Under the pieces are notes generated by a model. That model saw only the letters and a list, made by a program, of their open reading frames with translations, searched no databases and was not told the origin of the DNA. Positions 24,514 to 45,229 of a stretch of DNA of 64,000 bases are shown piece after piece (within the stretch, counting starts at the first letter, position 1; each line of letters starts with the position of its first letter). Location: NCBI GenBank assembly GCA_049322255.1, contig JBMORE010000162.1, positions 1 to 64,000 on the forward strand, written 5' to 3'. The translations under genes and the position numbers were made by a program. This DNA is from Myxococcota bacterium (GTDB taxonomy: Bacteria > Myxococcota > Myxococcia > Myxococcales > Myxococcaceae).

Positions 24514-27027
24514 GTGCGCCAACCGATGCAGATCTTCAGATGGCTCAAGCGGCTGGCGCTCCCCGGCCTCGCCCTCTTGCTCGTCGCGGTGGTGGGCAGC
24601 GCGGCGGCCTACGTGTACTTCGAGCGCGATCTCCCCTCGGTCGAAGAGCTGCGCAACTACAAACCACCGCAGGTGACCAAGGCCTTTTGTGTCGACGGCA
24701 CGCGCTGCGCCGAGTTCTACCGGGAGCGCCGCACCTGGGTGCAGATCGAGACACTCCCCGCCCACGTCAAGAACGCCTTCCTCGCCGCCGAGGACGCCGA
24801 CTTCTACCAGCACCAGGGGCTCGACTTCCTCGGCATCGCCCGCGCGGCCTTGAGGAGCCTCTTGCCCGGCAACCGCATCACCGGGGCATCGACCATCTCC
24901 CAGCAGGCGTGCCGCAACCTGCTTTTGTCGCAAGAGCGCACGCTGTCCCGAAAGATCCGCGAGTGGATTCTCACTCCCCGCATGGAGAAGGCCCTCACCA
25001 AGGACCAGATTCTCAACCTGTACATGAACTTCGTGTACTTCGGGCACGGGCGCTACGGCATCGAGGAAGCGGCGGTCTTCTACTTCGGCAAGCACGCCAA
25101 GGAGCTGACCCTGGGCGAGGCCGCGGTGCTCGCGGGCACCGTGCAGTCACCTCACCGCATCAACCCGGTCAGCAACATCGTGCGCACCAAGGCCCGGCAG
25201 CGCTACGTGCTCGCCCAGCTCGCCGAGCACGGCTTTGCGCCCCGGTCGGCCACCGACGCGGAGATGGAAAAACCGATCGTCCTCGGCCCGCGCCCGCCCC
25301 CGTCGGTGGGCGCCTACTACGCCGAAGAAGTGCGCAAGACTTTGGTGGCGCGCTACGGAGAACAGGCGGTGCTCGAGGGCGGCATGACGGTGGAGATCGC
25401 CATGCACCCCAAACTGCAGGCGCTCGCCGAAAAGGCCGTGCGCGCAGGGCTGGAGGCGGTGGATCGGCGCCAGGGCTACCGCGGCCCGCTCGGCAGCCTC
25501 GACCCGCTGCGCTTCGCCACCTTGCGGCCGCTCATCTCCCAGCGCATCGAGGAGACGGGCAAGCGAACACCCCAGGAGTCGTTCATCGCCGACTTGACGC
25601 CGCTTTCCGCGCCGCAGCCGGCCGAGCCCGTGGGAACGGAAGAGGAGCGCTCCGACGACGGCGAAGCTCCCCCAAGCCTCGACGAGCAGCTCGCCGGGCG
25701 GGTGAGCCTTGCACCAGCCTCCGAAGGGCTGCGGGTGGCCGGCTGGGTGGAGCAGGTCGACGATGCGAAAAAATTCGCCGCCGTCGACTTGGTCGGACGC
25801 AAGGCGACGGTGAGCTTCGCTTCGGTTTCCTGGGCCCGGCCGCGCAAAGACGGCCGCGTCGGGGTGGCGCCCACCAAGATGTCGCAGGTGATGCGGCCGG
25901 GAGAGCTCGTCCTTCTACGCATTACCCAGGTCACCCCCGCACCGGCGCCGCTGGAGGCGACGCTCGACCAGCTCCCCGCCGTGCAAGGAGCGCTCTTGGC
26001 CATCAACCCCGCCACCCGGCACGTGGCGGCGATGGTGGGCGGCTACGACTTCGAGCGCTCGGCGTTCAACCGCGCCACCCAGGCCAAGCGCCAGCCGGGC
26101 TCGTCGTTCAAGCCCTTTCTCTACGGCGCTGCGCTGGCGAGCAAGACGTACACCTCTCTCACCGTGGTCAACGATGCGCCCTTCATGGTGCGCGACCCGT
26201 GGACCGGCAAGTCGTGGGCGCCGAAGAACTACGACGGCTTCTTCGAGGGCCCGATGAGCTTGCGCACCGCCCTCACCAAGTCGAAGAACACCGTCTCGGT
26301 GCGTCTCATCGAGGCGCTCACCCCCGACCCGGTGATCGACCTCGCGCGGCGGGCGGGAGTGACCTCGACGCTCCCACAAAACCTCACCCTCGCGCTGGGA
26401 ACCGGGGAGGTCACCCTGCTGGAGATGGCCAACGCCTACGCCACTCTGGAAGCCTTGGGACGGTACGCCGAGCCGATCCAGATCCTGAAGGTGATGGATG
26501 CCAAGGGCACCGTGCTCGAGGAGCGCACCGCGGCCTTCGAAGAGGTGGTGGACCCGGCGGTGGCTTACCTCGTCACCTCATTGATGGTGAGCGTGGTGGA
26601 GGACGGCACCGCCGCCCGGGTCAAAGAGCTCAACCGGCCGGCGGCGGGCAAGACCGGCACCGCGCAGGAGTACCGCGACGCTTGGTTCACCGGCTACACC
26701 GCCGACTTGGTCGCCAGCGCCTGGGTGGGCTTCGATAACCACGACCCACTGGGTCCCGGTGAGGCGGGCGGACGAGCGGCGCTGCCCATCTGGCTCTCCT
26801 TCATGGCCGGGGCGCACGACGAGCTGCCTGCGCGTGACTTCGAGCCACCTCCGGGAGTGACCTTCGCGCGCATCGACCCGGCCACCGGGCTGCTCGCCGG
26901 CAACGCGGTGCCCGGTCGGCTGGAGCCGTTCTTGGAAGGCACCGCCCCCACCACCGAGGCCCCGCCGCCCAATCAGGTACAACCCGGCGACTTCTTTCTT
27001 CACGACGGGAGGCGCGGGGGGTTTTGA
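24514..27027 (+). CDS. mrcA: Penicillin-binding protein 1A (class A PBP)
   Basis: TM anchor; GT motifs EDADFYQHQG, GASTISQQ, RKIRE; TP motifs SSFK, SKN, KTG. Confidence 0.93.
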   Translation: MRQPMQIFRWLKRLALPGLALLLVAVVGSAAAYVYFERDLPSVEELRNYKPPQVTKAFCVDGTRCAEFYRERRTWVQIETLPAHVKNAFLAAEDADFYQHQGLDFLGIARAALRSLLPGNRITGASTISQQACRNLLLSQERTLSRKIREWILTPRMEKALTKDQILNLYMNFVYFGHGRYGIEEAAVFYFGKHAKELTLGEAAVLAGTVQSPHRINPVSNIVRTKARQRYVLAQLAEHGFAPRSATDAEMEKPIVLGPRPPPSVGAYYAEEVRKTLVARYGEQAVLEGGMTVEIAMHPKLQALAEKAVRAGLEAVDRRQGYRGPLGSLDPLRFATLRPLISQRIEETGKRTPQESFIADLTPLSAPQPAEPVGTEEERSDDGEAPPSLDEQLAGRVSLAPASEGLRVAGWVEQVDDAKKFAAVDLVGRKATVSFASVSWARPRKDGRVGVAPTKMSQVMRPGELVLLRITQVTPAPAPLEATLDQLPAVQGALLAINPATRHVAAMVGGYDFERSAFNRATQAKRQPGSSFKPFLYGAALASKTYTSLTVVNDAPFMVRDPWTGKSWAPKNYDGFFEGPMSLRTALTKSKNTVSVRLIEALTPDPVIDLARRAGVTSTLPQNLTLALGTGEVTLLEMANAYATLEALGRYAEPIQILKVMDAKGTVLEERTAAFEEVVDPAVAYLVTSLMVSVVEDGTAARVKELNRPAAGKTGTAQEYRDAWFTGYTADLVASAWVGFDNHDPLGPGEAGGRAALPIWLSFMAGAHDELPARDFEPPPGVTFARIDPATGLLAGNAVPGRLEPFLEGTAPTTEAPPPNQVQPGDFFLHDGRRGGF

Positions 27028-28439
27028 TGTTGCCCGTCCTCTTCTCATTTTTCGTTGCAGGAGCTCCCCTCTTCCTTTGGAAGAGGGAAAGGGTGAGGGA
27101 ACCAGTAGCTCTGCTTGCGAGCTCTCGCCCCTCACCCCCGCCCTCTCCCAAAGGGAGAGGGAGCACGGCGCTCGACGAGCTGGCGAAGGAAGTCGCCAAC
27201 CAGGTCGCTGCCTCGGCGCAGCCTCCGGTGGCGGTCTACGTTCACTCCCCGGCGCCAAAGCTGGCGCGCGGCTTCACGACCTTGCTGGTCGCCGAGCTCT
27301 CGGCCCAAAAGCTCGCAGGCATGGCCATCGACGGCGGCGAAGCTCCCGAGGCCGCGGCACGACGCGTGGGCGCGCGTTCTTTGGTGCGGCTCGACCTCTC
27401 CCTCGAAGAAGGCACCTTGGCCGCGCGTGGCGACCTCCTTGGCACCTGGGTCAACTTCTGGTCGGGCGCAGCGCCCACGCGCCCCGCTCAGCCGGCCGCG
27501 GCGCTTGCCGCCTCCACCCAAGCCGACGCCCATGCGCTCGTCCTCGCTACGGTGTCCCTTGCAACCACTTCCACCGATGCCTCCACCGCCTTACGCCTGA
27601 TTGGAGCCTCCTTCGCTCGCCTGAACGCTCCTTCCGCCGCGCTTGCAGCGGGAGATCTCGACGGTGACGGAAAAGAGGAGATCGCTGCCCTCACCGACGA
27701 GGAGGTGCTGCTCTTCTCCTCGGACGGCAGGCTGCTCGCGCGCCACGAGCACCGAACACTCCCGCCCTCCGAGGCACCCTGCCGCGAGCCATTCGGCGCC
27801 ATCGCCGTCACCCGCTCTCCCGCGCGGGTGGCGTACTTCTCCTCGCGCCGAGCGAGGGGGGAGCTGCTCGCGTGGGAGAAAGGCTCGTTGCGCGCGATCG
27901 CGCCGCTCACCGAGGCACCGGTCGCGCAGCTCGCCGAGGGTACGGTGTGGGGGCAAATGCTCCCCGGGCTCAACTCCTTTGCGGCGGAGCTCACCTGGCC
28001 CGGCAAGGGCAACCTCCAGGCTGAGGCCCCAGTGCAGGCGCTCTCGACGCAGGGGGAATGGGTGCTCGCCATCCAACCTGATGGAACCGCGCCGCTGGGC
28101 CGTGGTCCTACTCATCTAGCCACCCGCATCGGTGACGTACCGGTGGGAAGCGCACTGGTCGACGTGGATGGCGACGGGCTACCCGAGCTCGTGCTGAGCG
28201 CTGAGCCTCATACGCCGGAGAAAGAGACGCTGCGCATCTTCTCCCTCAAGTTCTCCCTCAAGGGAGAGAGGGACCCTTCCGGAAACGCTTTGCTCTGGGA
28301 GGGCCCGGTGCCCCGAGGACGGGTGCTTCAGATTGTCGCGGCCGACATCGACGGCGACAAACGGGCGGAGCTGATCCTCGGCACCTGGCTTGCCGACGGC
28401 ACAGGAGAGCTCCATCTGTTCAGGAGGATTTCTCCATGA
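27027..28439 (+). CDS. Exported FG-GAP/VCBS repeat protein
   Basis: TGATG overlap with pbp1A; DLDGDGKEE, DVDGDGLPE, DIDGDKRAE repeats. Confidence 0.75.
   Translation: MLPVLFSFFVAGAPLFLWKRERVREPVALLASSRPSPPPSPKGRGSTALDELAKEVANQVAASAQPPVAVYVHSPAPKLARGFTTLLVAELSAQKLAGMAIDGGEAPEAAARRVGARSLVRLDLSLEEGTLAARGDLLGTWVNFWSGAAPTRPAQPAAALAASTQADAHALVLATVSLATTSTDASTALRLIGASFARLNAPSAALAAGDLDGDGKEEIAALTDEEVLLFSSDGRLLARHEHRTLPPSEAPCREPFGAIAVTRSPARVAYFSSRRARGELLAWEKGSLRAIAPLTEAPVAQLAEGTVWGQMLPGLNSFAAELTWPGKGNLQAEAPVQALSTQGEWVLAIQPDGTAPLGRGPTHLATRIGDVPVGSALVDVDGDGLPELVLSAEPHTPEKETLRIFSLKFSLKGERDPSGNALLWEGPVPRGRVLQIVAADIDGDKRAELILGTWLADGTGELHLFRRISP
27063..27164. repeat. Palindromic repeat, copy A (inverted dimer) inside CDS
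   Basis: CCCTCTTCCTTTGGAAGAGGGAAAGGGTGAGGG (27067-27099) and CCCTCACCCCCGCCCTCTCCCAAAGGGAGAGGG (27129-27161) are inverted arms. Confidence 0.85.
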
Positions 28440-29911
28440 GCGCGCTTTCGTCCCTCTCCCAAAGGGAGAGGGCAAGGGTGAGGGACCCCGAATTCCGCGA
28501 GCTGACGCCCCTCACCCCAACCCTCTCCCAAAGGGAGAGGGGGCGGGGGTTTCTCCTCCTCACGGTCGCGCTGGTCGTCGGCGCTCAGAGCGCCCACGCC
28601 GCTTCGCGGGCGCGCTTCGGCGGAACGATCAAGGTCGCGGTGGCCGGCAAGCAGACCGAGAAGGATCCTCTCTTCGCCGACACACCCCTCGAGGCGACGA
28701 TGAACGGCTTGGTGGCGCAGAGCTTGTGCCGTGCCGAGCCCCACGGTTTTCGTGAGCAACTCGCCCGATTCTCTCGCCTGTCGGCAACCCAGCTGCGCAT
28801 CACCGTCGCCGGCAGGCTGCGCAATGACATCGGCAGCAGCCTGATGCACGTCATCTCGGCGGGTCAGCCTTCCCCCTACAACGCGCTTCTTTTCCCGTTG
28901 CGACGCCCGGGAGACATCTCCACCGTTTCCGACGACTCGCTCGATCTCCACCTCGCCTTCCCCTGGCCTGATCTCGAGCGCTCCCTGTGCCATCCCACGC
29001 TGGCCATCCTCGACGAGAACCGCCGGGTCCGCGGCCATCACCTCGGCGACGGACCCTTCGTTCACACCACGAGTGGCGGCGACTACCTGGCCAATGCACG
29101 GTTCCCCCGCGGCCGTCCCTTCGCGGACACGCTCCGGGTCACCTTCACCGACGAGCGCGGTGCCTCGCGGCTGCTCACGCTCGACCAAGCCCACGTGGTG
29201 CTCGGTGCGACCGGCGAACGCTCCGTTCCCACCGGGCCCGCGCTCTACGCCACCTATCTCGCCTTTCGCCACGAGAAGGTCGGCCCTGCTTTTCGTGACG
29301 CGGTGGAGTCGACCATCGACCGCGCCGACCTCACCCGCTATTTTGTCCGTGCCCCTGCGGTTCCGATGCTCCGGCTGCTCCCTCCCGCGCTGATGCCTCA
29401 GGAGCCGCTCACCCGGGCTGTTCCTCGCCCCCCGCCGGGGGCCTTGCGTGAGGTGACGCTGCTGTTCGACCAGTCCGCCAGCGACCAGCGCGCGGTGGCC
29501 GAACGCCTTCAGGTCAAGCTCCATGACCGCGGCTTCAAAGTGGCGCTCCGGGCGCTTTCCCGGCGCGAGCTGCGCGCACGCTGGAGCAAGGGCGATTTCG
29601 ACCTAATGCTTCACTCGCTCTTGTTGCCACCAGCGCCTGCGCCCGCACTTGCCATCGTCCTCGACGCCGCGGGCAGAAAAGACCTGCTCCCCATTCACCT
29701 ACCGACTCTGGGGGCCATTCCCGAAACCGCTGTCCGCGACGAACGCGCCCTCGCCCTCGCCCAAGAACTGCTCCCCAAGCTGGAGTTGGTTCCGCTCTAC
29801 GCCCAGGGCCTCCCGGTGGCGGTCAGCCCCAAGCTGCAAGGGCTGACATTCGACGCGCAGGGCCTGCCGATGCTGGATGACGCCTTTCTCGTCGAGAGTG
29901 AAACTCCCTGA
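28436..29911 (+). CDS. Peptide-ABC (SBP family 5-like) substrate-binding protein
   Basis: Signal peptide then RARFGGTIKVA; GDGPF; GRPFADTL; ATGA overlap with upstream gene. Confidence 0.7.
   Translation: MSALSSLSQRERARVRDPEFRELTPLTPTLSQRERGRGFLLLTVALVVGAQSAHAASRARFGGTIKVAVAGKQTEKDPLFADTPLEATMNGLVAQSLCRAEPHGFREQLARFSRLSATQLRITVAGRLRNDIGSSLMHVISAGQPSPYNALLFPLRRPGDISTVSDDSLDLHLAFPWPDLERSLCHPTLAILDENRRVRGHHLGDGPFVHTTSGGDYLANARFPRGRPFADTLRVTFTDERGASRLLTLDQAHVVLGATGERSVPTGPALYATYLAFRHEKVGPAFRDAVESTIDRADLTRYFVRAPAVPMLRLLPPALMPQEPLTRAVPRPPPGALREVTLLFDQSASDQRAVAERLQVKLHDRGFKVALRALSRRELRARWSKGDFDLMLHSLLLPPAPAPALAIVLDAAGRKDLLPIHLPTLGAIPETAVRDERALALAQELLPKLELVPLYAQGLPVAVSPKLQGLTFDAQGLPMLDDAFLVESETP
28452..28541. 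repeat. Palindromic repeat, copy B (inverted dimer) inside CDS
   Basis: CCCTCTCCCAAAGGGAGAGGGCAAGGGTGAGGG (28452-28484) and CCCTCACCCCAACCCTCTCCCAAAGGGAGAGGG (28509-28541). Confidence 0.85.
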
Positions 29912-31569
29912 TGCGCCTTCGCACCACCCTCGCGCTCGCCTTCGTCGCCCTCTCGGTGCTCCAAGTCGCCGCGGTGGCGCCCTTCGCGCTGAAGAACCTC
30001 TCCTCGCTCCTCTTGCGCCAGCAGGACACACGCATCGAGGGAGTGATGAGCTCGGTGCAGGCGGCTCTGCAGCGGACCTCCGCCGACGCCCGCCGCGCGA
30101 TGGACGAGCTGGCGAGCAGCGAGGCCTTGGAAAAGGTCGCCCGCGATCTCCGCAAAGACCCGCCACCACCCCACCTTGCCTCCGTCGCCGAGTCGTTGAT
30201 GCGCCCGCGAGGGCTGTCGGTGCTTTCCCTCTTCGACGAACAAGGCCGCACCCTCTCTTCTGGACACCTGCCCGCGCGGTTGGGCGACCCCGACGAGCAG
30301 CTCTTCTCCACCACCTCGGCCGGAGGCGACTTGGTGCCGGTGATGGTCGAGCTGCGAAACGCCGCAGGCCTTCGTCGCGCGCCCGCCCTGGTCTCCGCGC
30401 GCGCGGTGGAGTACGGCGACAAGAAGGTGTGGGCGGTGGGCGGGGTCCTCCTCGACGAGGCGCTGGCCCACTTCGTCTCCAACCTCGCCGGGGCGCGGGT
30501 GGAGGTTTGGGCCGAGGGCGCCGCGCTCGCCACCGCGGGCCAGGCACAGGCGCCCACTGTCGAACGGGTGGTGCCCTTCCCGCCTACGGCCGAGCTGAAG
30601 CTGGCTTTCTCCCGTGCCGACCTCTTCGCCGCCCAAGCCCAGATGCTACGCGCCTTCGCCCTCCTCTTCGGCATCGGCCTGGCGCTGGCCGTTCTCGGAG
30701 GCCTCTTCGTCGCCCGCCGTGTCACTCGCCCGGTGGAGTCACTGACGGCCGCTGCTTCCAAGATCGCCGCCGGCGCGCTCGACACCAAGGTGGAGGAGAA
30801 GGCCTCGGGCGAAATCGGCGAGCTCGTCCGCACCTTCAACCGTATGACGTCGGACTTGAAGGCGACCACCGAGCAGCTGGTGGCCTCGGAGCGGGTCGCC
30901 GCCTGGCAGGAGGTCGCCCGCCGCCTTGCCCACGAGCTGAAAAACCCCCTCACCCCGATTCGCATGTCCCTGGAGACGTTGCTCGCCGCCACCGATGCGA
31001 ACAGCCCTCGCTTCCAAGCGCTCTTCAAAGAAAGCGCGGGCGCGATGCTCGAGGAGGTCGAACGCTTGCGGCGCATCGTCGACGAGTTCAGCCGCTTCGC
31101 CCGGCTCCCCAAGCCGCAGTTGGCCGAGCTGGACTTGGGCGAGCTCGCCGCGCAGGTGCTCTCGCTGTTCACCTCCCCGCCCGAGGGCGTGCAGCTCTCC
31201 CAGACGCTCCAACCCAACGTCGTCGTTTCCGCCGACCGCGACCAGCTCACCCAGGTTCTGCTCAACCTCATCAAGAACGCCGGCGAGGCGATGCCGAGAG
31301 GGGGCCGCATCGAGGTGCGGGTGAAGGCCGCAGGCGAGGAGGCGGTGCTCGAGGTCGAAGACACTGGCCCGGGCGTCAAGCCCGAGGACCGCGCGCGCCT
31401 GTTCGAGCCCTACTTCACCACCAAGGAGGGCGGCACCGGCCTAGGGCTGGCCATCGCCGCCCGCATCTGCCAGGAGCACCGCGGCCGCCTGGAGGTCGGC
31501 GGCGAGGTCGGCAAGGGCGCCGTCTTCTCGGTGGTGCTCCCCCGTCGCGCCTCAGCAAGGCGGGACTGA
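29911..31569 (+). CDS. crdS: NtrY-like HAMP sensor histidine kinase (CrdS-like)
   Basis: 2 TM + HAMP; H box AHELKNPLTPI; NLIKNA, DTGPG, FEPYFTTK, GTGLGL; last gene of the pbp1A operon, as recalled for crdS. Confidence 0.8.
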   Translation: MRLRTTLALAFVALSVLQVAAVAPFALKNLSSLLLRQQDTRIEGVMSSVQAALQRTSADARRAMDELASSEALEKVARDLRKDPPPPHLASVAESLMRPRGLSVLSLFDEQGRTLSSGHLPARLGDPDEQLFSTTSAGGDLVPVMVELRNAAGLRRAPALVSARAVEYGDKKVWAVGGVLLDEALAHFVSNLAGARVEVWAEGAALATAGQAQAPTVERVVPFPPTAELKLAFSRADLFAAQAQMLRAFALLFGIGLALAVLGGLFVARRVTRPVESLTAAASKIAAGALDTKVEEKASGEIGELVRTFNRMTSDLKATTEQLVASERVAAWQEVARRLAHELKNPLTPIRMSLETLLAATDANSPRFQALFKESAGAMLEEVERLRRIVDEFSRFARLPKPQLAELDLGELAAQVLSLFTSPPEGVQLSQTLQPNVVVSADRDQLTQVLLNLIKNAGEAMPRGGRIEVRVKAAGEEAVLEVEDTGPGVKPEDRARLFEPYFTTKEGGTGLGLAIAARICQEHRGRLEVGGEVGKGAVFSVVLPRRASARRD

Positions 31570-31834
31570 TCAAGTTGAGGCTGTCTCGGTTCCGGCGGCA
31601 GGAGCTTGTAAGGTCGCAAGCTCCCGCGAAAATGACATCCCCGACGTACTCCAGGTCGTCCGGTAGGCCTCAGCCTGATACGCGAGTTTTCCGTTCTTCA
31701 TGAACATTGGTCTTTCGACGTAGCGAAGCCACCTGCCACGAGGGCGAAGAACTGCAGTACCGCTACCACGTAACCGAATGCGCCCACTTCAAGGCCACCG
31801 TCGGGACCACTCAGACGATACCCACGGCATCGAT

Positions 31835-31859
31835 CAAGGCCGGCCCATCGCCGGCCTTG
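31835..31859. terminator. GC-rich hairpin upstream of vapBC
   Basis: CAAGGCCGGC-CCATC-GCCGGCCTTG perfect 10-bp stem; no clear U tract. Confidence 0.4.
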
Positions 31860-31906
31860 TCGTGCCGTATATCAAGTGGTATCTCTCATCCAACTGGAGG
31901 TCGTCG

Positions 31907-32179
31907 GTGGCTACCAAACGAAGCTCGCGAAGCACTTACGCCAAGGTCTTTTGGTCGGGTCGCAGCCAGGCGATAAGACTGCCGAAGGACTATCGCGTCT
32001 CGTGCCGAGAGGTGCGCATTCACAAAGAGGGTGAACGGATCATTCTCGAGCCAGCGCCCGACGCCTTGGACGCCAGAGGCTGGCCCTTGCGCTTTTGGCG
32101 CATCTTCGGTCGGCTGGACGCTTCTTTTGATTTGGGCGACCGAAACATACCGGCTGAACGTTCGAACCCGCTCAAGTGA
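31907..32179 (+). CDS. vapB: AbrB/SpoVT-type VapB antitoxin
   Basis: AKVFWSGRSQAIRLPKDYR motif; RBS GGAGG; GTG start. Confidence 0.9.
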   Translation: MATKRSSRSTYAKVFWSGRSQAIRLPKDYRVSCREVRIHKEGERIILEPAPDALDARGWPLRFWRIFGRLDASFDLGDRNIPAERSNPLK

Positions 32180-32586
32180 AGAAGCCCGCCTACCTGCTCG
32201 ATACGAATATCGTCAGCCTCGCACTCAAAGGTCGCAGCTCCGTTGCGGTTGCACGGCTCAAGAAGGTTCCCAGATCCAAGGTAGCGATCAGCGTCATCAC
32301 CGAGATGGAGCTGCGTTTCGGCGTTGCGAAGCACCCTGCTCCACATGAAGTGAGGCAGACGATCGAAGAATTCTTGGCCACCATCCCCGTTGCGAATTTG
32401 CCCGAGGACATCGCATCGGTGTACGGCTCCCTTCGCGCCGAGCTCGAAGCACGAGGCAAACCCATCGGGCCGCTCGATACCATCATCGCTGCCCACGCGA
32501 TCGCTGCGCGCGCGATCTTGGTCACCAACAACGGCCGGGAGTTTGGCCGCGTGCGCGGTCTTCGCTGGGAGGACTGGACGGCATAA
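32176..32586 (+). CDS. vapC: VapC/PIN toxin
   Basis: YLLDTNIV, ELRFG, IGPLDTIIAAHA, LVTNNxREF, LRWEDW. Confidence 0.95.
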   Translation: MKKPAYLLDTNIVSLALKGRSSVAVARLKKVPRSKVAISVITEMELRFGVAKHPAPHEVRQTIEEFLATIPVANLPEDIASVYGSLRAELEARGKPIGPLDTIIAAHAIAARAILVTNNGREFGRVRGLRWEDWTA

Positions 32587-32739
32587 CGACCAGAATCGCC
32601 CTCGCACCGTCAACCAGGTTGACGCTTTCGTCAACCTCGCTGACGGTCGCGGCCGTCTTCTCGAACCTTGACGCTCGCAGCCGAAGCGGCACGCTGACTG
32701 CATTGGGCGGCGGCGCTTTCGCTTCGGAGGAACACCACG

Positions 32740-33519
32740 ATGATTGGCCCCTTCAAACGCAGGAGCTCTTGGCCGTCGAGCTTCGCCACCGGCCTGATTG
32801 GGTGGGTGGGCTTCGGCATCATCGTACCGGCGGCGCTGGGGTACACCCACTCGATGGTGAAGCTCGCCGCGCTCGCAGCGGCTGGGGCGACGGCTCAGGT
32901 GGTGCTTTTGCGCCTGGCATTTTCCTTCTTGAGGATGGAGCGAAGTGTGTTGGCCGGTGCCCTTTGGGGTGGAGTCTCAGCCGCCGCCATCGTCGCCGTT
33001 GGAGTGGCGTTCATCGAGGTCCTGAAGTCGCATCCCGGGGTCGCCTTGGCGACGGGCGCCTACGTCGGGGTGCCGGTGGGAGCATTTCTTTCGTACTTTC
33101 ACCGCGACGATCGAAGAATCGAAGCTGCCGCACGTGCCGCTGGCGGACCGGTTGACTACGGGCGCGACGCCCACTGGCTCGACCCCTTCGTCTACGGCGC
33201 CGTCTGCTACGTCATCGCGTTCCTTCCCAGGTCGACGAATGTGGCGATGGTCGCCGCTGCGGTAGGCATGATCGTCGGCGTCACGGCCGCCGGGGTGAGC
33301 CACTTCATTCTCTCGCGTTGGCAGAATGCACCGTGGACCCTCCCCGTCGCCTCGCTCATCGGCGCGGCTTTTGGCGTTCCCACCGGACTCGCCCTGCGCA
33401 CACACGCCGATGCACTCTGGCTTCCCCCGTGGGCGAGCGGTGCGACGGCAGGAGCCCTCACGTTTTTCGTCACCGCCGTGGTGGGTCGAGCCCTCGCGCG
33501 CAGGGAGGGAGGCGGATGA
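32740..33519 (+). CDS. Hypothetical polytopic membrane protein
   Basis: About eight Gly/Ala-rich hydrophobic segments with a central YGRDAHWLDPF loop. Confidence 0.7.
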   Translation: MIGPFKRRSSWPSSFATGLIGWVGFGIIVPAALGYTHSMVKLAALAAAGATAQVVLLRLAFSFLRMERSVLAGALWGGVSAAAIVAVGVAFIEVLKSHPGVALATGAYVGVPVGAFLSYFHRDDRRIEAAARAAGGPVDYGRDAHWLDPFVYGAVCYVIAFLPRSTNVAMVAAAVGMIVGVTAAGVSHFILSRWQNAPWTLPVASLIGAAFGVPTGLALRTHADALWLPPWASGATAGALTFFVTAVVGRALARREGGG

Positions 33520-33965
33520 GCGCCCTGGTGGTTTTCTGCCGCGTCTTGCACATCGCGGCAACGTGCACCTCGTTGGGCGGTCTCTTCTACGCCCGCACCG
33601 TGTTGTGGCCCTCGCTCCCGAATTTGCCTCAAGACGAACGGGAGCAATTCCTCTCGACGGTGATTCGCCGCTACGCGCTCATCAAATGGAGCGGCGTCCT
33701 CATCGTGGCGGTCACCGGAGTGATTCAGTGGGGCCTCGTCTGGCCGCAGGTGGCAAGCCCTCGGCTCTACATCGCCTACTTCGCCCTCAAGATGCTCGGG
33801 GCGGCGGGGCTCTTCTCCATCACCTTCCTACTTGCCTTGCCCGCAGAACGGCTCGCCACCATGCGACGGTCGCGAGGCTTCTGGTCGGGGCTCAACCTCG
33901 CCTGCGCGCTGACCATTCTCGTCGGCGCCGCGCTGATGCGAAGCGTACCGAAGGGTGCGCCGTAG
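33516..33965 (+). CDS. Four-TM membrane protein (CopD/DUF4149-like)
   Basis: RVLHIAA...GGLF; TG.IQ; LKM; ATGA coupling to upstream gene. Confidence 0.6.
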   Translation: MSALVVFCRVLHIAATCTSLGGLFYARTVLWPSLPNLPQDEREQFLSTVIRRYALIKWSGVLIVAVTGVIQWGLVWPQVASPRLYIAYFALKMLGAAGLFSITFLLALPAERLATMRRSRGFWSGLNLACALTILVGAALMRSVPKGAP

Positions 33966-33984
33966 GGCCGCTCTGACAGCCCCG

Positions 33985-34230
33985 TTAGAAAAGTGACGGC
34001 TTGGAGCGCGAAGGCGACGAAACCGGGAAGATGGGGTCGGGGTCCTGGGGAAGCGCCCGGGAGCCGACCGGCACCGGCGAAACGACCACCGGGGTCTGCC
34101 CTCCACCCTCGGTCGTCATGAGGGCGCTCTGCACTGTGCCCACCGCCGCCTGCCCTTCGGGGTCGTCTACACCCACCCCACACCCAGCGAGGGCCAGCAC
34201 TGCCACAATTCCAACGGTGATGCGCTTCAT
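33985..34230 (-). CDS. Small lipoprotein
   Basis: MKRITVGIVAVLALAGC lipobox; ...QSAL motif; Pro-rich tail. Confidence 0.7.
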   Translation of the reverse strand: MKRITVGIVAVLALAGCGVGVDDPEGQAAVGTVQSALMTTEGGGQTPVVVSPVPVGSRALPQDPDPIFPVSSPSRSKPSLF

Positions 34231-34243
34231 CGCTCGGTACCCG

Positions 34244-34259
34244 TGCAAACGTAGTGCCT
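34244..34259 (-). promoter_or_regulatory. Putative sigma-54 promoter of small lipoprotein gene
   Basis: Minus strand AGGCAC-TACGT-TTGCA, one mismatch from TGGCAC-N5-TTGCW, in a 31-bp intergenic gap. Confidence 0.6.
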
Positions 34260-34261
34260 TC

Positions 34262-37200
34262 TCAGTTGCCATGGAGTACCCCTTTGAGCGTCGGCTCGGC
34301 GTTGACGATCTGCGACAGGCGCGACCGCTTCATCTTCAGCAGGCGAGCGGCCTTGCTGATGTTGCCCTTCGCCTCGACGAGCGCCTGGCGAATGCATTGC
34401 GTCTCGACTTCATGGCGCAGGTCCTTGAGCGAGAGGCCGCGCCCGCGGGCGAGGGCATAGTAATCGAGCGCTGATGGAGGGCTCGCCGACGTCGGCGAGT
34501 CCGCGTCTCCACCCACCGGCTCTGCCACCGGTTTCGAGAACCGAGCCGACGCTCCGTCGTTCAACCCTGCCAGCTCGGGGATGTGCGCGAAGGACTCGGG
34601 GGTGATGCGCGCGCCTTCGACGAAGATGGCCGCGGAGGCGAGCACGTTTTCCAGCTCGCGCACGTTTCCCGGCCAGGGGTGGCGAGCAAGCAGCTCGAGC
34701 GCCTCCGGCGTCAGCTGCTTGGGCGATTCGGCCCGCTCCTGTGCGGCCCTCGTCAGGAAGTGAGCGGCGAGCTCCGGCAGGTCCTCGAGGCGCTCGCGCA
34801 GTGGGGGCAGCTCGAGCACCACTCCCTTGAGCCGGTAGTAAAGATCTTGCCGGAAACGGCCCTGGGCGATCAGCGCTTCGAGCTCGCGGTTGGTCGCGCA
34901 TACGACCCGCACGTCCACCTTCAAAGTCTTGGTGCCGCCTACCCGCTCGAACTCCTTCTCCTGCAACACGCGCAGCAAGGCCACCTGGCACCTGGGGCTG
35001 ATGTCGCCAATCTCGTCGAGAAAGAGGGTGCCTCCGTCGGCGAGCTCGAAGCGCCCCTTGCGCTCGCGCACCGCCCCGGTGAAAGCACCCTTCTCGTGGC
35101 CGAAGAGCTCGGAGAGGAGCAGCTCCTCCGCCATCGCCGCGCAGTTCACCTTCACCAGCGGCATCGCCCGACGGGGTGAGGAGAGGTGCAGAGCCTCGGC
35201 GACCAGCTCCTTGCCGGTGCCGCTTTCGCCCCGAACCAGCACGGTGGCGTTGGAGCGGCCGAGCGGCTCGAGCTGCCGGACGACCTGGGTCAACGCGCTC
35301 GAGCGACCCACCAGCCCGTGGTGAAGCTTGGGCGCCGGTCCCGGCGGTGGTTGCAGCCGGGGCAGCTTCAGCTCGTGCTCGACCTCCGCGCGCACCTCAG
35401 CGCGCCGGGGTACCGAGAGGAACTGCGCCCTCCGCGGCGCGGGCACGCGCGCAGTGAGCTCGTCGAGCATTCTCACCGCGCGGGACATCTCGGCTTGCGC
35501 ACCCACCTGGTCGCCCGCCGCCCGCCGGAGCCGCCCCATGAGGAAGTACACCCGGTACGGCCCCTCGAGATCCGGCTGGGCGAGCAACGCCTCGCGCGCC
35601 CTCGCCGCCGCCCGGCCGGCCCCGTGGAGATCCTGCTCCAACAGCGCCAGCTCAGCCCGGGCGAGCTCGGCTTCGACCCCCGCCGCGGTCAGCTGCGTCT
35701 CGCCCTGCTCCAGACAGCGGCGCGACAGCTCGGCCCATGCCTGCACCCGCTCCCCCGCTGTCAGGTGGGCGCGCGCCTTGAGGGCGGCAGCCAGCGCCGC
35801 TTGGCCGTCGTTACCCACCCGCTCGAAGGATGCGCGCGCCTCGTCGAAGAGCTTTTGGGCTTGCACCGCCTCACCCGTGTCGAGCCTCACCGCCCCCAGG
35901 TTGAGCAGCGCGTTTCCCTGCAGGTACACCTCACCCATCCGCCGCGCCTGCACCAACGCGTGCTCCGAGAGCTCGAGGGCCCCTTCGAAGTCGCCCAGGA
36001 AGTGACGGAGACGAGCCAGGTTCGAGGCCACCGCTGCCACGTCGCGTTGGCTGCCCATGCGCGCGAAGGCCCGTAGGGCGCGCCCCAGATGGTCGAGGGC
36101 GAGCTCGAAGTCCCCGCTGTCGGCGTAGAGCGAGCCCAAGTTGGCCAGCGCCTTGGCCTGTGCCGGACGGTGCGTCGAACCCACCGCCTGATAGCAGGCG
36201 ATGGCCTTGTCGCGCTCGCCCCGCTTGTGGGCCACCACCCCCAGGTTGTGCAGCGCCCAAGCCGCGTGCTGCCCAAGCCCCGCCTTCTGGGCGAGCCTTT
36301 GGTTCTCGGCGAAGAGCTGCTCCGCCGCCGCCAGCTCGCCTTTGAGCAGCTGGGCCCGACCACCGAGGTTACGCAACGTCAACGCTCGCTCGAGGTCGTC
36401 GCCCAGCGAAGGCAGCCAATGCTCGACGAGGTCCAAAGTGACGTCGGGGCGACCTCGGCAAAGCTCGATCTCCGCCAGATGCACGTGGGCGGCGGCTTGG
36501 GTGGAGGGCTCTTGGAGCGCGCGCGCGAGCACCGCCTGGGCGGAAGACAGCCGGCCCAGACGAAGCAGCAGCCGGGCAGCCTTCTCCGACAGCTCGGTCA
36601 GCTCCCGCTTCGAAAGCGTCCGCCCCCGACGGGTGGAGAGCAAACAGCGCACCGCGCGCCGGAGGTCTCCCTGCTGGGCATGACTCTCGGCGAGGCGGTG
36701 GAGCGCCCCGACGCGACGTTGCCCCGTCAGGTGCGGCAGCGACCGCCCGTACAGGTCGGCGGCGTCTTCGTGCGCACCCCGGGCGAACAACACGTCGGCG
36801 GCGGCGAGGGCCGCGGCGGCCCCCTTGCCTGGTGGATCGACCTCCAGCAGCACCTGGGCGGCCCCGACCACGTCGCCGCGCGCGGAAAGCTCTTCGCCCA
36901 GCGCGGCGCGCACGCGAGCGATTCTTTCGGTACCCAGCTCCTGGGCGAAGATTTGTTTCTCGCTCTCCCGGGCGAAACGGTACACCGCGCGCCCATCCAC
37001 CACCCGCATCGAAACCAGGTGCGCCCGGAGGAGCGCGTCGAGCGCGGTCGCGGCATCGAGCATCGGCGACAGACGGTCGACGACGGCGGTGACCAGCTCC
37101 TGCGGCACGGCCTCGAACGAGGCGGCAAGCACCGACAGCACCTCGTATTGGCTCAGCTCGAGCCTCTTCACCCGGTGCAGGAAAAGCTCGGTCGGCGGCG

Positions 37201-37972
37201 CCTCGGGCGAGAGCATTTGCTCGAGGACGTCGGGGCTTCCTCCGGTCGTCGCGAAAAGCCGCTCGGCAAGCTCTCGCCGCGACAGATAGGCGCGAATGCC
37301 GTCGGCGTCCAACCCCGCAAGGGGCAGCGAGCGCGCGTTCCCCTTGCCTACCAGCTCGCCGAGCGCTGCGGGCAAGGCTCCTGGCTCGTCTCGAAAGGAG
37401 GCGACGAACAGGCCACCACCCTTCGCTTCGGGGAAAGTCGACACCGCGGCCAGGTGCCGGAAAAGCTCGAGCGAGGAACGGTCGGCGGCGTCGAGGTCGT
37501 GAAAGAGGAATGCCGGGTGGCTTTTGCCGGCGAGGGCGAACAGCTCGCAGATGGCATCGAAGAGCGTTCGACGCGCCTGCTCGACACCGACGAGCGGCTC
37601 GCCACCGCGACTCAGCGGCGAAAGCACGCGCCACAGCTCGGCCAACCTCACCGAGGCGGGCCCGAGGTCGTGCCCCAGGTGATCGAAAAGCTGGCTCACC
37701 ATCGACGAGAAGAGCCCGTAGGGCCGCCGCACCTCGCGAGGCGACGTCGCTTCGAATACGGCGGTGCCACGGGCGGCGAGCGCTTGGCGCAAAAGCCCGA
37801 AGAGGTGGCTTTTGCCTACACCCGCGGGGCCGCGCACGAAGACGAAGCCGGCGCGCTCGTTGATGCGGGCAGCGTCGTGCTCGCCCAAGAGCTCCGCCAG
37901 CTCGGCCTCGCGCCCCGATGCATCCGTCGCTGTTTGCGGCTCGTTCGCCAGCGCTCCGGCTTCCCTGGCCAT
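34262..37972 (-). CDS. Large AAA-ATPase + TPR + sigma-54 activator (EBP) with HTH
   Basis: N-terminal P-loop GPAGVGKS; many TPRs; GESGTGKE, GAFTGA, WPGNVREL; Fis HTH GNISKAARLL. Confidence 0.88.
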   Translation of the reverse strand: MAREAGALANEPQTATDASGREAELAELLGEHDAARINERAGFVFVRGPAGVGKSHLFGLLRQALAARGTAVFEATSPREVRRPYGLFSSMVSQLFDHLGHDLGPASVRLAELWRVLSPLSRGGEPLVGVEQARRTLFDAICELFALAGKSHPAFLFHDLDAADRSSLELFRHLAAVSTFPEAKGGGLFVASFRDEPGALPAALGELVGKGNARSLPLAGLDADGIRAYLSRRELAERLFATTGGSPDVLEQMLSPEAPPTELFLHRVKRLELSQYEVLSVLAASFEAVPQELVTAVVDRLSPMLDAATALDALLRAHLVSMRVVDGRAVYRFARESEKQIFAQELGTERIARVRAALGEELSARGDVVGAAQVLLEVDPPGKGAAAALAAADVLFARGAHEDAADLYGRSLPHLTGQRRVGALHRLAESHAQQGDLRRAVRCLLSTRRGRTLSKRELTELSEKAARLLLRLGRLSSAQAVLARALQEPSTQAAAHVHLAEIELCRGRPDVTLDLVEHWLPSLGDDLERALTLRNLGGRAQLLKGELAAAEQLFAENQRLAQKAGLGQHAAWALHNLGVVAHKRGERDKAIACYQAVGSTHRPAQAKALANLGSLYADSGDFELALDHLGRALRAFARMGSQRDVAAVASNLARLRHFLGDFEGALELSEHALVQARRMGEVYLQGNALLNLGAVRLDTGEAVQAQKLFDEARASFERVGNDGQAALAAALKARAHLTAGERVQAWAELSRRCLEQGETQLTAAGVEAELARAELALLEQDLHGAGRAAARAREALLAQPDLEGPYRVYFLMGRLRRAAGDQVGAQAEMSRAVRMLDELTARVPAPRRAQFLSVPRRAEVRAEVEHELKLPRLQPPPGPAPKLHHGLVGRSSALTQVVRQLEPLGRSNATVLVRGESGTGKELVAEALHLSSPRRAMPLVKVNCAAMAEELLLSELFGHEKGAFTGAVRERKGRFELADGGTLFLDEIGDISPRCQVALLRVLQEKEFERVGGTKTLKVDVRVVCATNRELEALIAQGRFRQDLYYRLKGVVLELPPLRERLEDLPELAAHFLTRAAQERAESPKQLTPEALELLARHPWPGNVRELENVLASAAIFVEGARITPESFAHIPELAGLNDGASARFSKPVAEPVGGDADSPTSASPPSALDYYALARGRGLSLKDLRHEVETQCIRQALVEAKGNISKAARLLKMKRSRLSQIVNAEPTLKGVLHGN

Positions 37973-37984
37973 CGGCCACGGATG

Positions 37985-38000
37985 AGCAACGCTTGTGCCA
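37985..38000 (-). promoter_or_regulatory. Sigma-54 promoter of the large EBP gene
   Basis: Minus strand TGGCAC-AAGCG-TTGCT, full match to the -24/-12 consensus. Confidence 0.7.
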
Positions 38001-38100
38001 CCCTCGCCGACGCTGGTGCTTCTTCGCGCGGAGAGATTCAAACCGGCAGACACCCGCGACAACCGTGGCGTGCACTGCTCAAAAATCGGTCACGGCGAAG

Positions 38101-39789
38101 CTACTCTTTCACCGGCGTCGCCTTGAGCGCTGCCTTGCCTTCTTTCACGTAGACCTGAAAGCGAACCGTGCGGCAGTTGTACTTGGCGACCAGCTGCTCC
38201 TTGTTCTTGCGCAGCTTGACCGCGAACTTGTCGAAGGTGAGACCTTCGGCAGGCTCGCCGCAGCGCTCGCGGGTGGCGAGAAACTCGCGAAACACGTCCT
38301 GGAAGTGCTGGTCCTCGCCACCTCCTACCGGAGCCACCGACTGCACCGCAGGCAGCGGCGACGCACGCCGGGGGGCAGCCATCGGGTCGACGGTTCCCGC
38401 CAGCGCGCTGGCCTGGAGGAGCTCCTGAGACACCGATGCGACGCGGGTGGCGTCACGGTTGTCGTCATCAGCGTCACCCTGCGCCATCGAGGCCGTCTGC
38501 GCCACCAGGCCGGCGGGCGGCATGGTCGCCACCGTCCTCGCTTCGTCTTGGTTGAACGGGGAGAAGGCGTGCTCAGCAGGCAAAGCGCCATCGTCAAATG
38601 GCACCGGCGGCGGCTCGGCGACCGCACCGGAAAACGCGTCGGGCCCGGGCGTCTCTGGGGGCGGCCCGAATTGGAAATCATCGGGGCTCGCCTCGGCAAC
38701 CGGCTCGATCTCGCTGATGGGCAGAGCAGGGGGCGCCTCGGAGCGGGCCGGCGTCGGCGGAGGCGCGGAAGCGGCGCTCTCTTTCTTCTCTTCCTTGTCC
38801 TTGGCGGCAGCGCGCTTGACGGCTCCGGAGCCCATCACCAGCGTCCACACGAGCGTCAGCCCGAAGAGCCCAGCGAAGACGAACATCGCCAATCGCTGGT
38901 AGCTCGCGAGGGTCGTCATCCACGGCCGCAGGTCGGCGATGGCGACGACTTCGAAGGGGGTGCCGCGCAGCTCCTGCCGTGAGCCAACCGAGAGCGCCGC
39001 CGACCCTCCCAGCGGGTCACGCTCGGTCAGCGCCGGCAGCTGAAGCGGCCCTAAACGGTCGACCTGCCCGCGCTCGATCACCTTGGTCTGGCCTGGTTGG
39101 GTCGATTGCTCCAGGGCGGCGGCGGATGCCTGAAGCGCCGAGCTGCTCTCGACGATCTTCCCCCCAGCGAGCACCGCCACCGCGCCGAGCTTCAGCTCCT
39201 TGGCCACCGCTTCCGCCACTCCTGGGGGAAGCACCGGCACCCCGACCACGAGGTGTCCGTGCACCTTGGCCTGGTCGGGCTTGTCGGCCACCGCCAAGGG
39301 AAGGGCGAAGAAAACGTGCGGAACACCGAAGGCGTCTTGCAGGGTGCCGCCGGCGCTCACCGAGGCCAGCGAGGAGGGGTCGAATTCGCCTCCCTCCTTC
39401 GCCACCACCGGCTCTGCCTCTGCGCGCGCGTAAATCGCCCCACCCTCGTTGATCCAGCCAATCACCGCCGAGGCGCGCAGGGCCTCGGGCATCGCCTGGA
39501 CGAGCTCCTGGCGCACCGTGGCGAACTTCTCCGGCGATGGTGCCTCACCTTTGTACCCGGGCTTCGCCGCCGCCAGCACCGCCGGGTTGCCCACTGCGGC
39601 GAGCAGCCCCGTTTGCAGGTCGAAACGGTGTTGGTCGAGCTCGAGAGCCATCACCGCCGATGCCGAAGCGGCCGAGGCGGCGGCGAGCTCCTGCGCGCGG
39701 GTGGAGACGAGCGGAGAGAGCGCCCACAGGTGCCACAGCCACGCCCCAAAAACGACGAGCGCAAAGAGGAGGAACTTGATGCGGGCCAT
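38101..39789 (-). CDS. MXAN_5187-family membrane protein
   Basis: Two TMs, Pro/acid-rich linker, C-terminal domain ending VRFQVYVKEGKAALKATPVK. Confidence 0.75.
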   Translation of the reverse strand: MARIKFLLFALVVFGAWLWHLWALSPLVSTRAQELAAASAASASAVMALELDQHRFDLQTGLLAAVGNPAVLAAAKPGYKGEAPSPEKFATVRQELVQAMPEALRASAVIGWINEGGAIYARAEAEPVVAKEGGEFDPSSLASVSAGGTLQDAFGVPHVFFALPLAVADKPDQAKVHGHLVVGVPVLPPGVAEAVAKELKLGAVAVLAGGKIVESSSALQASAAALEQSTQPGQTKVIERGQVDRLGPLQLPALTERDPLGGSAALSVGSRQELRGTPFEVVAIADLRPWMTTLASYQRLAMFVFAGLFGLTLVWTLVMGSGAVKRAAAKDKEEKKESAASAPPPTPARSEAPPALPISEIEPVAEASPDDFQFGPPPETPGPDAFSGAVAEPPPVPFDDGALPAEHAFSPFNQDEARTVATMPPAGLVAQTASMAQGDADDDNRDATRVASVSQELLQASALAGTVDPMAAPRRASPLPAVQSVAPVGGGEDQHFQDVFREFLATRERCGEPAEGLTFDKFAVKLRKNKEQLVAKYNCRTVRFQVYVKEGKAALKATPVKE

Positions 39790-39929
39790 CTCGTCCTTTG
39801 TCTGGCAAGGCCGCCGCCACACCGCGGCGGAAACGAGAGCGCTTATAGCGTCTGCCCGCCAACGGCAGCAAGGACGTCCAGCGCGCTTCGACCGTGGTAG
39901 CCTTCGAGGCTTCGCGAAAGGGCGGGCGC

Positions 39930-40358
39930 ATGAGGTACTGCACACAGTGCGGCTCGGAGTACGAGGACAGCGTCGACCGCTGCTCCGACTGCGGCGGCAC
40001 CGAGCTGGTGTCGGCCGACCGGCTGCAAGAACACAGGCGCGCCCTGCCCCATGAGATGGACACCCGCCGATTCGTGCGCGCTGGCACCGCCGAAGACCCG
40101 CTGACCGCCGAGCAGTACACGGCGGCGCTGGAAGCGGCGAAGATCCCCGTCTTTGCCCGCCCCCGCCGTGCCGGCACCGTCGACAGCCTCACCTCGGGGG
40201 TGATGTCTCCTTGGTGGGAGATACTCGTGCCGGAGGATCACCTGACCCAGGCCACCGCGCTGTTGGAGACGGAGGCGCGCCAAATCGATGCGGCCGCCGA
40301 GCGCAACGCCCGCGCTGCCGAGGAAGAGGCGGCGGGAACAGAGCCAAAGGAAGGCTAG
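39930..40358 (+). CDS. Zinc-ribbon + DUF2007-like protein
   Basis: YCTQCG...CSDCG; LEAAKIP...ILVPED..A..LL. Confidence 0.75.
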   Translation: MRYCTQCGSEYEDSVDRCSDCGGTELVSADRLQEHRRALPHEMDTRRFVRAGTAEDPLTAEQYTAALEAAKIPVFARPRRAGTVDSLTSGVMSPWWEILVPEDHLTQATALLETEARQIDAAAERNARAAEEEAAGTEPKEG

Positions 40359-41239
40359 CGCTCGCTCGCTGCGGCGGTGGCGGCACCAGGGCGGGTCACT
40401 TCGTAGAAGCTCACCCCCACCACCTTCCACTTGCCGTACTTGGCGTGGCGCGCGAGGAAAGTCTCCAGGTCTTCGTCCACCACCTTTCCCAACGAGCGCG
40501 AAGCGTGGCGCAGCTTGGGCCGCTGCCGGGGCTTTTTCACCAGAATGCCCAAGTGGCTGATGCGGGTAGGTAAAAGGGGCCGCTCGTCGCGCACCACCAC
40601 CATCAAGGTGCCCGCGGGCAGCGCTCGGGCGCGCTCGAGCACCTTCCCCAGCGGCACCACGTTCAAAGGAAACTCGCCCACCTGTTGGCGCTCCTTGGGC
40701 AGCCTAAGCGCGGCCGAAGTCTTCGAGCTCCAGGTGCGCGGGGTGAGCACCTTGGTCAGCTGCAACACCTCGCCACCGCCGACGTGCCCGGTGACCTCTC
40801 GTAGGTAACCCTTGCGCGTGTTGTTGGGAAGCCAGGAGGCCTCCATCAAGTGGTTGCGGTCTTCGTAGGCGCGGCGGCGCTCGTAGCGTAGCTCGTCGAG
40901 GAGCGGCACCACCTCGGTGGCCGAACGGGCCAACGCCATCGCCATCGCCTGCTCGACCAGGGTGAGGCAATCGACGGCGTCGAAGCGCTCCACCGGGTCG
41001 GGGTCTTGGCCCTCGCCCTCTCCCAAGGGAGAGTGGACGTAGGGCGTGCCCAGAAAACCCTCGCTCATCAAGAGCAGGCGCTCCCCGAGCGAACGTTCCT
41101 GGTGAGAGGAGATTTCCTGGGCGCGGGAGTCCGCCGCCAGCTGCATCCACCTCGACGGCGGCGACCCCCTCTCCCCCTGGGAGAGGGCGGGGGTGAGGGG
41201 CGCGCCGGCGAGCACCCAGAGCGGAAGCACGAGAATCAC
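40355..41239 (-). CDS. DUF1460 N-acetylmuramoyl-L-alanine amidase-like (NlpC/P60 superfamily)
   Basis: FLGTPY, PLGEG, VDCLT, RNH, SHLG, RHAS; GTGA overlap with upstream gene. Confidence 0.8.
   Translation of the reverse strand: MILVLPLWVLAGAPLTPALSQGERGSPPSRWMQLAADSRAQEISSHQERSLGERLLLMSEGFLGTPYVHSPLGEGEGQDPDPVERFDAVDCLTLVEQAMAMALARSATEVVPLLDELRYERRRAYEDRNHLMEASWLPNNTRKGYLREVTGHVGGGEVLQLTKVLTPRTWSSKTSAALRLPKERQQVGEFPLNVVPLGKVLERARALPAGTLMVVVRDERPLLPTRISHLGILVKKPRQRPKLRHASRSLGKVVDEDLETFLARHAKYGKWKVVGVSFYEVTRPGAATAAASER
41167..41199 (-). repeat. Palindromic repeat, copy C (single arm) inside CDS
   Basis: Minus strand CCCTCACCCCCGCCCTCTCCCAGGGGGAGAGGG, translated PLTPALSQGERG. Confidence 0.8.
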
Positions 41240-44686: not shown

Positions 44687-44689
44687 CGC

Positions 44690-44932: not shown

Positions 44933-45229
44933 ATGGGTCACCATATCCACCAGGCTGGGTGAACGCCAAATCGGACTGGCACGGACTCGTCGGCTCACGA
45001 TCCGCGTTCGATGGCGCCCCGTGAGCCATCATCGATCGCGTGTATCGACCTTTCCTTGGATCGACAGTCCTCGCGCTGCTCTTGACGATGCTTGCCGGCT
45101 GTACGGCCTCGGGAAAGGCACCCTCTGAGCTCGCTTATCAAGTCCGGGTCGGGCGCCGGCTTCTTCGGCTCGTCCGCCACGGCGAACACGCTCCAGAGCA
45201 TTCCGACGGCGGCGAAGCGCCTCCTCGCG

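Follow-up and report, generated by a model that had tools for sequence, protein, structure and literature searches.

BoxC repeats have been known since the 1990s and are described as intergenic; we know of neither a function nor a mobiliser for them. The present report concerns a 33-nucleotide (nt) unit found in a 64,000-nt stretch of a Myxococcaceae genome (assembly GCA_049322255.1, contig JBMORE010000162.1, positions 1 to 64,000; hereafter the window), where five copies, or arms, lie in frame near the starts of three predicted genes. By its sequence this unit is a BoxC/PIT/TM_ECO repeat, read as the reverse complement of the published pattern (PMC4666352). The name TM_ECO replaced the earlier BoxC and PIT (PMC4666352). 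Its arms have the TM_ECO organization of a C-rich 9-mer, a loop of 3-6, a G-rich 9-mer, a loop of 3 and another G-rich 9-mer.

Besides the sequence pattern, the repeat shares with the published elements the inverted orientation of its pairs, the rule that a pair joins a type A and a type B arm, found in all five inverted pairs of Escherichia coli, and a patchy copy number among relatives (PMC4666352). It differs in abundance, with ~299 arms where E. coli K-12 has 23 and the highest number stated is 143, and in location: 140 of 258 loci overlap called coding DNA while the K-12 copies are always intergenic, although location is a tendency that does not define the motif. Here, arms bracket a nuclease gene, whereas the accessible text of PMC4666352 reports no such gene and no mobility genes near TM_ECO, and ascribes to PIT elements neither promoter or terminator function nor regulation. 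TM_ECO forms an intrastrand triplex in vitro; for the present repeat, duplex hairpins were computed.

Short palindromes within genes have been published for other families (PMC3733652). Rickettsia palindromic elements (RPEs) likewise lie in frame within unrelated, apparently intact genes, N-termini included (PMC10969869, PMC3733652). They are ~150 base pairs (bp) long and code one conserved peptide in a reduced intracellular host, whereas the repeat described here measures 33 or 74-95 bp, is read in five frames, has an unrelated sequence and resides in a GC-rich myxobacterial genome from a biofilm sample. The NCBIfam RPE models gave no match in the three host proteins. The REPIN/RAYT system and the repetitive extragenic palindromes (REPs) with GTAG/CGTC motifs also feature inverted doublets with a spacer, many singles, a heterodimer bias, closeness to gene 3' ends, supplied stop codons, some intragenic copies and one repeat-flanked candidate enzyme gene (PMC3116915, PMC3733652). 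The repeat differs from them in that its flank profiles lack GTAG and no Y1 tyrosine transposase was identified in the genome, the bracketed gene coding a DUF559 protein; its mobility is only proposed. With the prokaryotic MITEs, transposable elements of miniature size with inverted repeats, it has in common a short non-coding element, inverted ends and a possible autonomous partner (PMC10969869). Unlike them, it has no target-site duplication at 41 pairs, often replaces host residues and has no known transposase family tied to its ends. Sequence and pair rule place the repeat in the BoxC/TM family; it looks like a REPIN but is not an RPE, a REPIN/RAYT element or a MITE.

Repeat arms in three genes of the window

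Five arms with up to 3 mismatches are found in the window and none in 100 shuffled sequences. They form two inverted pairs (27067-27161 and 28452-28541) and one single arm (41167-41199), as in a preliminary description of this DNA, which had also correctly noted that the pair spacers share a sequence (both end in GCGAGCTnnCGC) and that no full intergenic copy is apparent in the window, as the search for the 33-nt unit confirms. The elements are:

27067 to 27099, minus strand: T-type BoxC/TM arm (loop TTT), left arm of pair 1, 2 mismatches; host-strand reading PLFLWKRERVRE
27100 to 27128, no strand: 29-nt spacer of pair 1, ending in GCGAGCTCTCGC
27129 to 27161, plus strand: C-type BoxC/TM arm (loop CCG), right arm of pair 1; peptide PSPPPSPKGRG
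28452 to 28484, minus strand: T-type BoxC/TM arm (loop TTG), left arm of pair 2; peptide SLSQRERARVRD, with an in-frame GTG as codon 15
28485 to 28508, no strand: 24-nt spacer of pair 2, ending in GCGAGCTGACGC
28509 to 28541, plus strand: C-type BoxC/TM arm (loop CAA), right arm of pair 2; peptide PLTPTLSQRERG
41167 to 41199, minus strand: single C-type BoxC/TM arm; peptide PLTPALSQGERG, directly behind the short signal peptide of an amidase-like gene

The repeats take up codons 14-45 of an FG-GAP protein gene, 6-36 of a solute-binding protein gene and 14-25 of the amidase-like gene. As stated earlier, the host starts overlap the upstream stops (TGATG 27025-27029, ATGA 28436-28439, GTGA 41236-41239). 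More than one reading frame is used, also as described, but the peptides quoted then represent two frames of the forward arm rather than three because PLTPTLSQRERG and PLTPALSQGERG are in a common frame. Three overlapping Logan contigs of sequencing run X1 cover 26400-29600 with 0 differences; X1 is possibly the source sample and hence not independent.

Comparison with orthologues supports the view that the three copies are in-frame, lineage-specific insertions of a dispersed repeat. At 29 loci of relatives, the solute-binding gene mostly starts by ATGA or GTGA on the upstream stop, a signal peptide of ~20 residues follows, and none of the loci has a strict repeat. The alignment has a gap of 34-35 columns in 10/10 homologues between the first residues and the hydrophobic core; an anchor motif at residue 55 here is found mostly at residues 15-29 in the homologues where it could be placed (45 of 120). 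Most FG-GAP genes (26 loci of relatives) and amidase-like genes (29 loci) also start on the upstream stop, and the short signal peptide that they code leads into a stretch rich in Pro and Ala whose length varies. The repeats of these two genes are located where that stretch begins, and no strict repeat was found at the two sites in the relatives examined. Because orthologues mostly keep the overlap start and the signal peptide but not the repeat, the inserts are lineage-specific, in agreement with the in-frame insertion first proposed. Orthologue lengths vary at the repeat-bearing sites of the host genes, which fits neutrality.

The solute-binding gene of four relatives carries other long, repeat-like or low-complexity inserts at its start (L019, L021, L023, L026), a sign that the site is tolerant. 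Further repeat-like or low-complexity inserts occur at the corresponding junctions of other genera (L032, L054, L065). Some of these junction inserts are in frame with the overlap start, and these gene starts look like recurrent landing sites.

Signal-peptide cleavage sites were deduced from sequence. The copies had been placed at signal-peptide ends; this is so for the FG-GAP and amidase-like proteins, where they follow the signal peptide, while the copy of the solute-binding protein precedes the hydrophobic core. The ~33 extra residues of the latter protein would be removed with its signal peptide, and those of the other two would become a Pro-rich N-terminal tail of the mature protein.

Translation of the window copies is strongly implied by the arrangement of start codons. 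It could be argued that the repeats are untranslated or partly translated, with initiation at a GTG of the G-rich arm or later, and that the long open reading frames are an effect of annotation. The left arm of both pairs indeed has an in-frame GTG, an ATG is found 6 codons past the amidase-like copy, N-terminal REPs are often extragenic, according to a warning in PMC3733652, and 12 of the 28 repeat-bearing overlap junctions of the genome have no read-through. Later starts are available in the FG-GAP and amidase-like genes but would deprive the proteins of a signal peptide retained in orthologues. For the solute-binding protein, the GTG is the only in-frame start ahead of the mature domain and leaves the right arm translated; the next start lies 32 codons on, within the mature domain. 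Nor does a later start offer a way round the copies inside MoaA, MurD, HypF and WbpP. An untranslated or only partly translated state of the repeats is improbable.

A looser hairpin scan of the window detected two partial look-alikes, both in coding DNA, near 28251 and near 41016. The first (28240-28275, plus strand) falls in a loop of the FG-GAP gene that varies in length; it is half of a hairpin, includes a direct duplication of 12 nt (FSLKFSLK) and is possibly a decayed copy. The second (41008-41035, minus strand) is the conserved native amidase motif SPLGEG, whose codons here agree with the core of the repeat and differ from those of most orthologues. The post hoc probability of this match is ~0.001, and a silent conversion of look-alike host DNA is possible.

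The host genes and their neighbours are:

24514 to 27027, plus strand: PBP1A-family gene (TIGR02074 above cut-off), whose stop overlaps the next start (TTGATG)
27027 to 28439, plus strand: FG-GAP protein, host of pair 1, with a predicted signal peptide of ~13 residues ahead of the repeat
28436 to 29911, plus strand: SBP_bac_5-like solute-binding protein (SBP_bac_5 match below cut-off), host of pair 2, the insert lying between start and hydrophobic core
29911 to 31569, plus strand: HAMP/HisKA/HATPase kinase in the crdS position, the gene order being that of the figure legend of PMC3147164
40355 to 41239, minus strand: AmiA-like (PF07313) protein, host of the single arm, whose GTG start overlaps the stop of an upstream HEAT-repeat gene

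The published crdS cluster has the order PBP1A, FG-GAP, solute-binding protein and kinase, the same as the window (PMC3147164). Three small gene pairs resembling toxin-antitoxin modules are present at 21837-22477, 31778-32586 and 44252-44944, with two PIN domains identified by Pfam.

Distribution of the repeat in the genome and in relatives

The genome of this study (G000; 4.85 Mb, 66.5% GC, 99.6% complete) has 299 arms at 258 loci, namely 217 singles and 41 pairs. Genes were called with a home-made, self-trained program (4207 genes, 89% coding DNA) that was not validated against a standard tool. The loci comprise 32 internal copies, 23 at C-termini, 51 that supply or contain a stop, 34 behind a coupled start, 21 in an open frame with an uncoupled upstream start, 37 in an open frame with no upstream start and 60 intergenic ones. 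The 140 loci that overlap called coding DNA include 74 overlapping C-termini.

Copies concentrate at gene junctions. A stop codon lies within 15 nt of 168 of the 258 loci (54 contain the stop), against 5.5% of random positions, and internal space, which makes up 71% of the genome, harbours 12% of the loci. Divergent gaps are under-used relative to convergent ones (13 loci in 627 gaps versus 42 in 630). At several junctions an arm ends one gene and the next gene begins in or just behind the arm. The G-rich strand of the arm features a GTGA, as start-on-stop overlap, behind a purine run (for example at G000:C10:31201, C148:54790 and C155:6495).

The frame is open through the repeat at 16 of 28 junctions with an ATGA or GTGA overlap versus 17 of 71 without (P=0.004); the genome-wide figure for overlap junctions is 559/801. 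These counts indicate that some members of the N-terminal class are truly read, but others are not. Five of the six frames are used in proteins, the sixth holding a TGA.

Internal copies lie in conserved enzymes. Pfam matches were obtained for 17 of 20 internal stretches tested, six sites lying within one domain envelope, and alignments to solved structures (PDB) span the repeat in MoaA, HypF (two sites), MurD and a WbpP-like epimerase; the helicase Lhr is also among the genes with internal copies. Several of these copies replace residues rather than insert cleanly: WbpP gains only ~2 residues and NFACT lacks ~30 at the site. Of the 37 cases with coding signal on both sides and a stop or a change of frame, nearly all look by eye like gene junctions with a new start nearby, and none could be recognised as a broken gene. 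There is good support for purifying selection having acted on the reading frame through the repeats.

The hydrophobic N-termini of the three window hosts had suggested a special link of the repeat to exported proteins and the ends of signal peptides. Genome-wide, only 34 of 258 loci are coupled N-terminal copies, and in their hosts the repeat precedes the hydrophobic core in 17 cases and follows it in 3, two of them in the window. Coupled hosts have a modest excess of hydrophobic N-termini (20/34 versus 445/1246, P=0.01), which is weaker at strict overlaps (14/23 versus 265/649, P=0.08). Beyond this modest enrichment, a specificity for exported proteins was abandoned on the grounds of class counts and core positions. 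In this census the window pattern is thus one aspect of the clustering that copies generally show at gene junctions, combined with tolerance, and not a targeting of exported proteins. The idea of a miniature mobile element surviving in tolerant N-termini of secreted proteins retains its dispersed, lineage-specific repeat and loses its secreted-protein specificity. Two other copies, in G000:C148:25793-28173, are in frame before prepilin-like leaders (GRRG-VTLIE, GERG-VALI) and would go if the leader were processed.

The enrichment just described also bears on a regulatory role, in which copies would have been co-opted in cis. Along the lines of the preliminary description, their mRNA hairpins would then tune how the pbp1A-FG-GAP-SBP-crdS operon is coupled in translation, exported or stabilised. 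The two window pairs fold into strong hairpins, far better than shuffled sequences (z -5.25 and -3.90), and the predicted stem of the solute-binding gene starts just behind its AUG, the upstream AGGAGG being paired in the model. For the single arm, however, folding does not surpass that of shuffles (z -1.23), the same hairpins are carried by hundreds of unrelated places and the copies are missing from the orthologues examined, including those of repeat-rich genomes. Added to the weaker enrichment at strict overlaps and to the lack of a regulatory role for PIT elements in the accessible part of PMC4666352, this renders co-option improbable. An Rfam scan of 26500-29000 yielded 18 matches, all under the gathering score and nearly all miRNA hairpins, which were discarded as chance.

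All 41 pairs of the genome have one orientation. The 37 that could be scored all combine a C-type and a T-type arm, differing by C or T at the first loop base, in line with the A+B rule, and a second position co-varies. Single arms still carry some of the consensus of the inner spacer, which a descent from pairs would lead one to expect. At the 41 pairs, no direct repeat above shuffles attests to a target-site duplication (an indirect test, made without empty alleles), and no extended outer inverted arms above shuffles were found. The flank profiles have no GTAG, and a CGTC-like word is present in some spacers only. Mismatch load was tried as a proxy for age and did not separate the classes.

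Of 61 genomes, 10 contain the strict pattern, five of them in hundreds of copies. Two relatives were sampled from their first-listed perfect matches: 14 of 53 loci are coding in G017 (4 internal and 5 coupled N-terminal) and 4 of 27 in G015 (1 and 2, respectively). These rule out that G000 is unique in having coding copies; what is higher in G000 is only the overall count with C-termini included (140 of 258 loci, P<0.001). Close pairs in G017 and G015 are mostly direct (L146, L167-L169, L174, L181, L182), not inverted as in G000. One site in the Lhr helicase gene (L127, L213, L214, L215) has a pair in G000, a single arm in G015, two direct arms in G007 and a hairpin remnant in G027. Its occupation in the four genomes compared suggests that copies have resided there for long and turned over, or that the site has been used repeatedly.

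A DUF559 nuclease as candidate mobiliser

The preliminary description suggested looking for a repeat-flanked RAYT/TnpA or DUF559 gene. No match to the RAYT/IS200 Y1 transposase (PF01797) was found in G000. A DUF559 gene is present elsewhere in the genome, the only full-length one, bracketed by an arm on each side in the orientation of the pairs (gene at G000:C47:17899-18216):

G000:C47:17834-18272 (L091:1436-1874): DUF559 cassette, gene of ~117 codons with 59% GC and two T-type arms

The right arm of the cassette is also the C-terminus and stop of the convergent neighbour gene. The protein resembles PDB entry 3hrl (E 1.5e-23), a Vsr-like PD-(D/E)XK fold, and DUF559 has been grouped with Vsr and a group I intron homing endonuclease (PMC3424549).

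Full-length DUF559 loci number 10, one in each genome and one of them in G000. By pattern search, 6 of the 10 are bracketed, against 0 of 22 partial-domain loci; by eye, the other four have variant or shortened arms. Full-length DUF559 is present in 5 of 10 repeat-positive genomes versus 5 of 51 others (P=0.007, kin not being independent). The repeat is probably spread by DUF559, a candidate mobiliser. Rather tentatively, the enzyme may cut or nick hairpin-like sites and repair may copy a repeat in, a mechanism that would account both for the missing target duplication and for host residues being often lost there.

Several observations weigh against such a partnership. No DUF559 match was found in G017 (99% complete, 183 arms) or G007 (86% complete, 258 arms), G020, G022 and G027 have partial-domain matches only, and the arms around DUF559 are mostly of the same type, unlike the short A+B pairs. 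The repeat might instead have needed no enzyme of its own to spread. Recombination or gene conversion by the host, or else repair where DNA forms triplexes or cruciforms, would then be sufficient, DUF559 being a passenger or merely a flanked gene. The repeat-rich genomes G017 and G007 would agree with this, as would the Lhr site, where a repeat or hairpin remnant is found in 4/4 genomes and full arms bear the loops typical of their own genome, the match of the native SPLGEG codons to the repeat core, and the mobility genes missing near TM_ECO in what is accessible of PMC4666352. The fixed-orientation bracketing of full-length but not partial DUF559 is hard to obtain by chance, and a distribution of none or hundreds of copies among relatives suggests bursts, so that this account is on the whole unlikely. 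It concerns the mobiliser only and is compatible with the insertion of the repeats in genes as explained below.

A broader proposal, offered with somewhat more reserve than the cutting mechanism, is that BoxC and DUF559 constitute an undescribed two-part mobile system, an analogue of REPIN/RAYT run by a Vsr-like (homing-type) nuclease. It would copy the A+B pair by cut-and-repair and land preferentially at stop/start junctions and look-alikes, and operons would stay readable because the element brings a stop, a GTGA overlap and a purine run with it; here it would have given new peptide to more than 100 proteins, exceeding the Rickettsia scale. Neither a DUF559 link to BoxC repeats nor a BoxC invasion of coding sequences was found in the literature, the coverage of which lacked most subscription papers.

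Probable selfish insertion and its consequences

The explanation that we favour, and consider likely, is that the five arms of the window are BoxC/PIT/TM_ECO copies in frame in three genes whose orthologues do not have them, selfish insertions kept where tolerated because the extra residues and hairpin do little harm at those sites. The A+B pair would be the moving unit and singles the remains of pairs, spread possibly occurring by DUF559-dependent cutting and repair from another copy. Copies behind an overlapping start or in a loop would persist only while the frame stays open.

Other results speak against this explanation or temper it. The case for translation and for movement is indirect. 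The best homologues of a host protein have 58% identity at most in a protein search, a metagenome scan for close relatives gave 156 pattern matches with none confirmed, and neither search produced an empty allele from a close relative. Contigs of three sequencing runs had no convincing joint skipping a repeat pair, the joints found fitting other repeat copies or organisms. Every class count depends on the home-made gene caller. Only 19 of the 34 coupled N-terminal copies pass a crude test for the absence of a usable later start and, with 12 overlap junctions not read through, part of this class may be due to chance. Coding and intergenic copies are equally near the consensus, and sequence decay thus cannot separate neutrality from selection.

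The three window copies are ordinary cases of the genome-wide pattern and not a dedicated control of the crdS operon. In the folding model, the hairpins of the pairs could affect initiation at the solute-binding gene, a selected role being only hypothetical. The BoxC family itself and the intragenic palindromes of other families were already known; what appears new is the invasion of coding sequences by BoxC and its proposed link to DUF559. The repeat distorts start calls and N-terminal annotation in Myxococcaceae. BoxC behaves here like the coding palindromes of Rickettsia, at a large scale and with a testable candidate for its partner enzyme.

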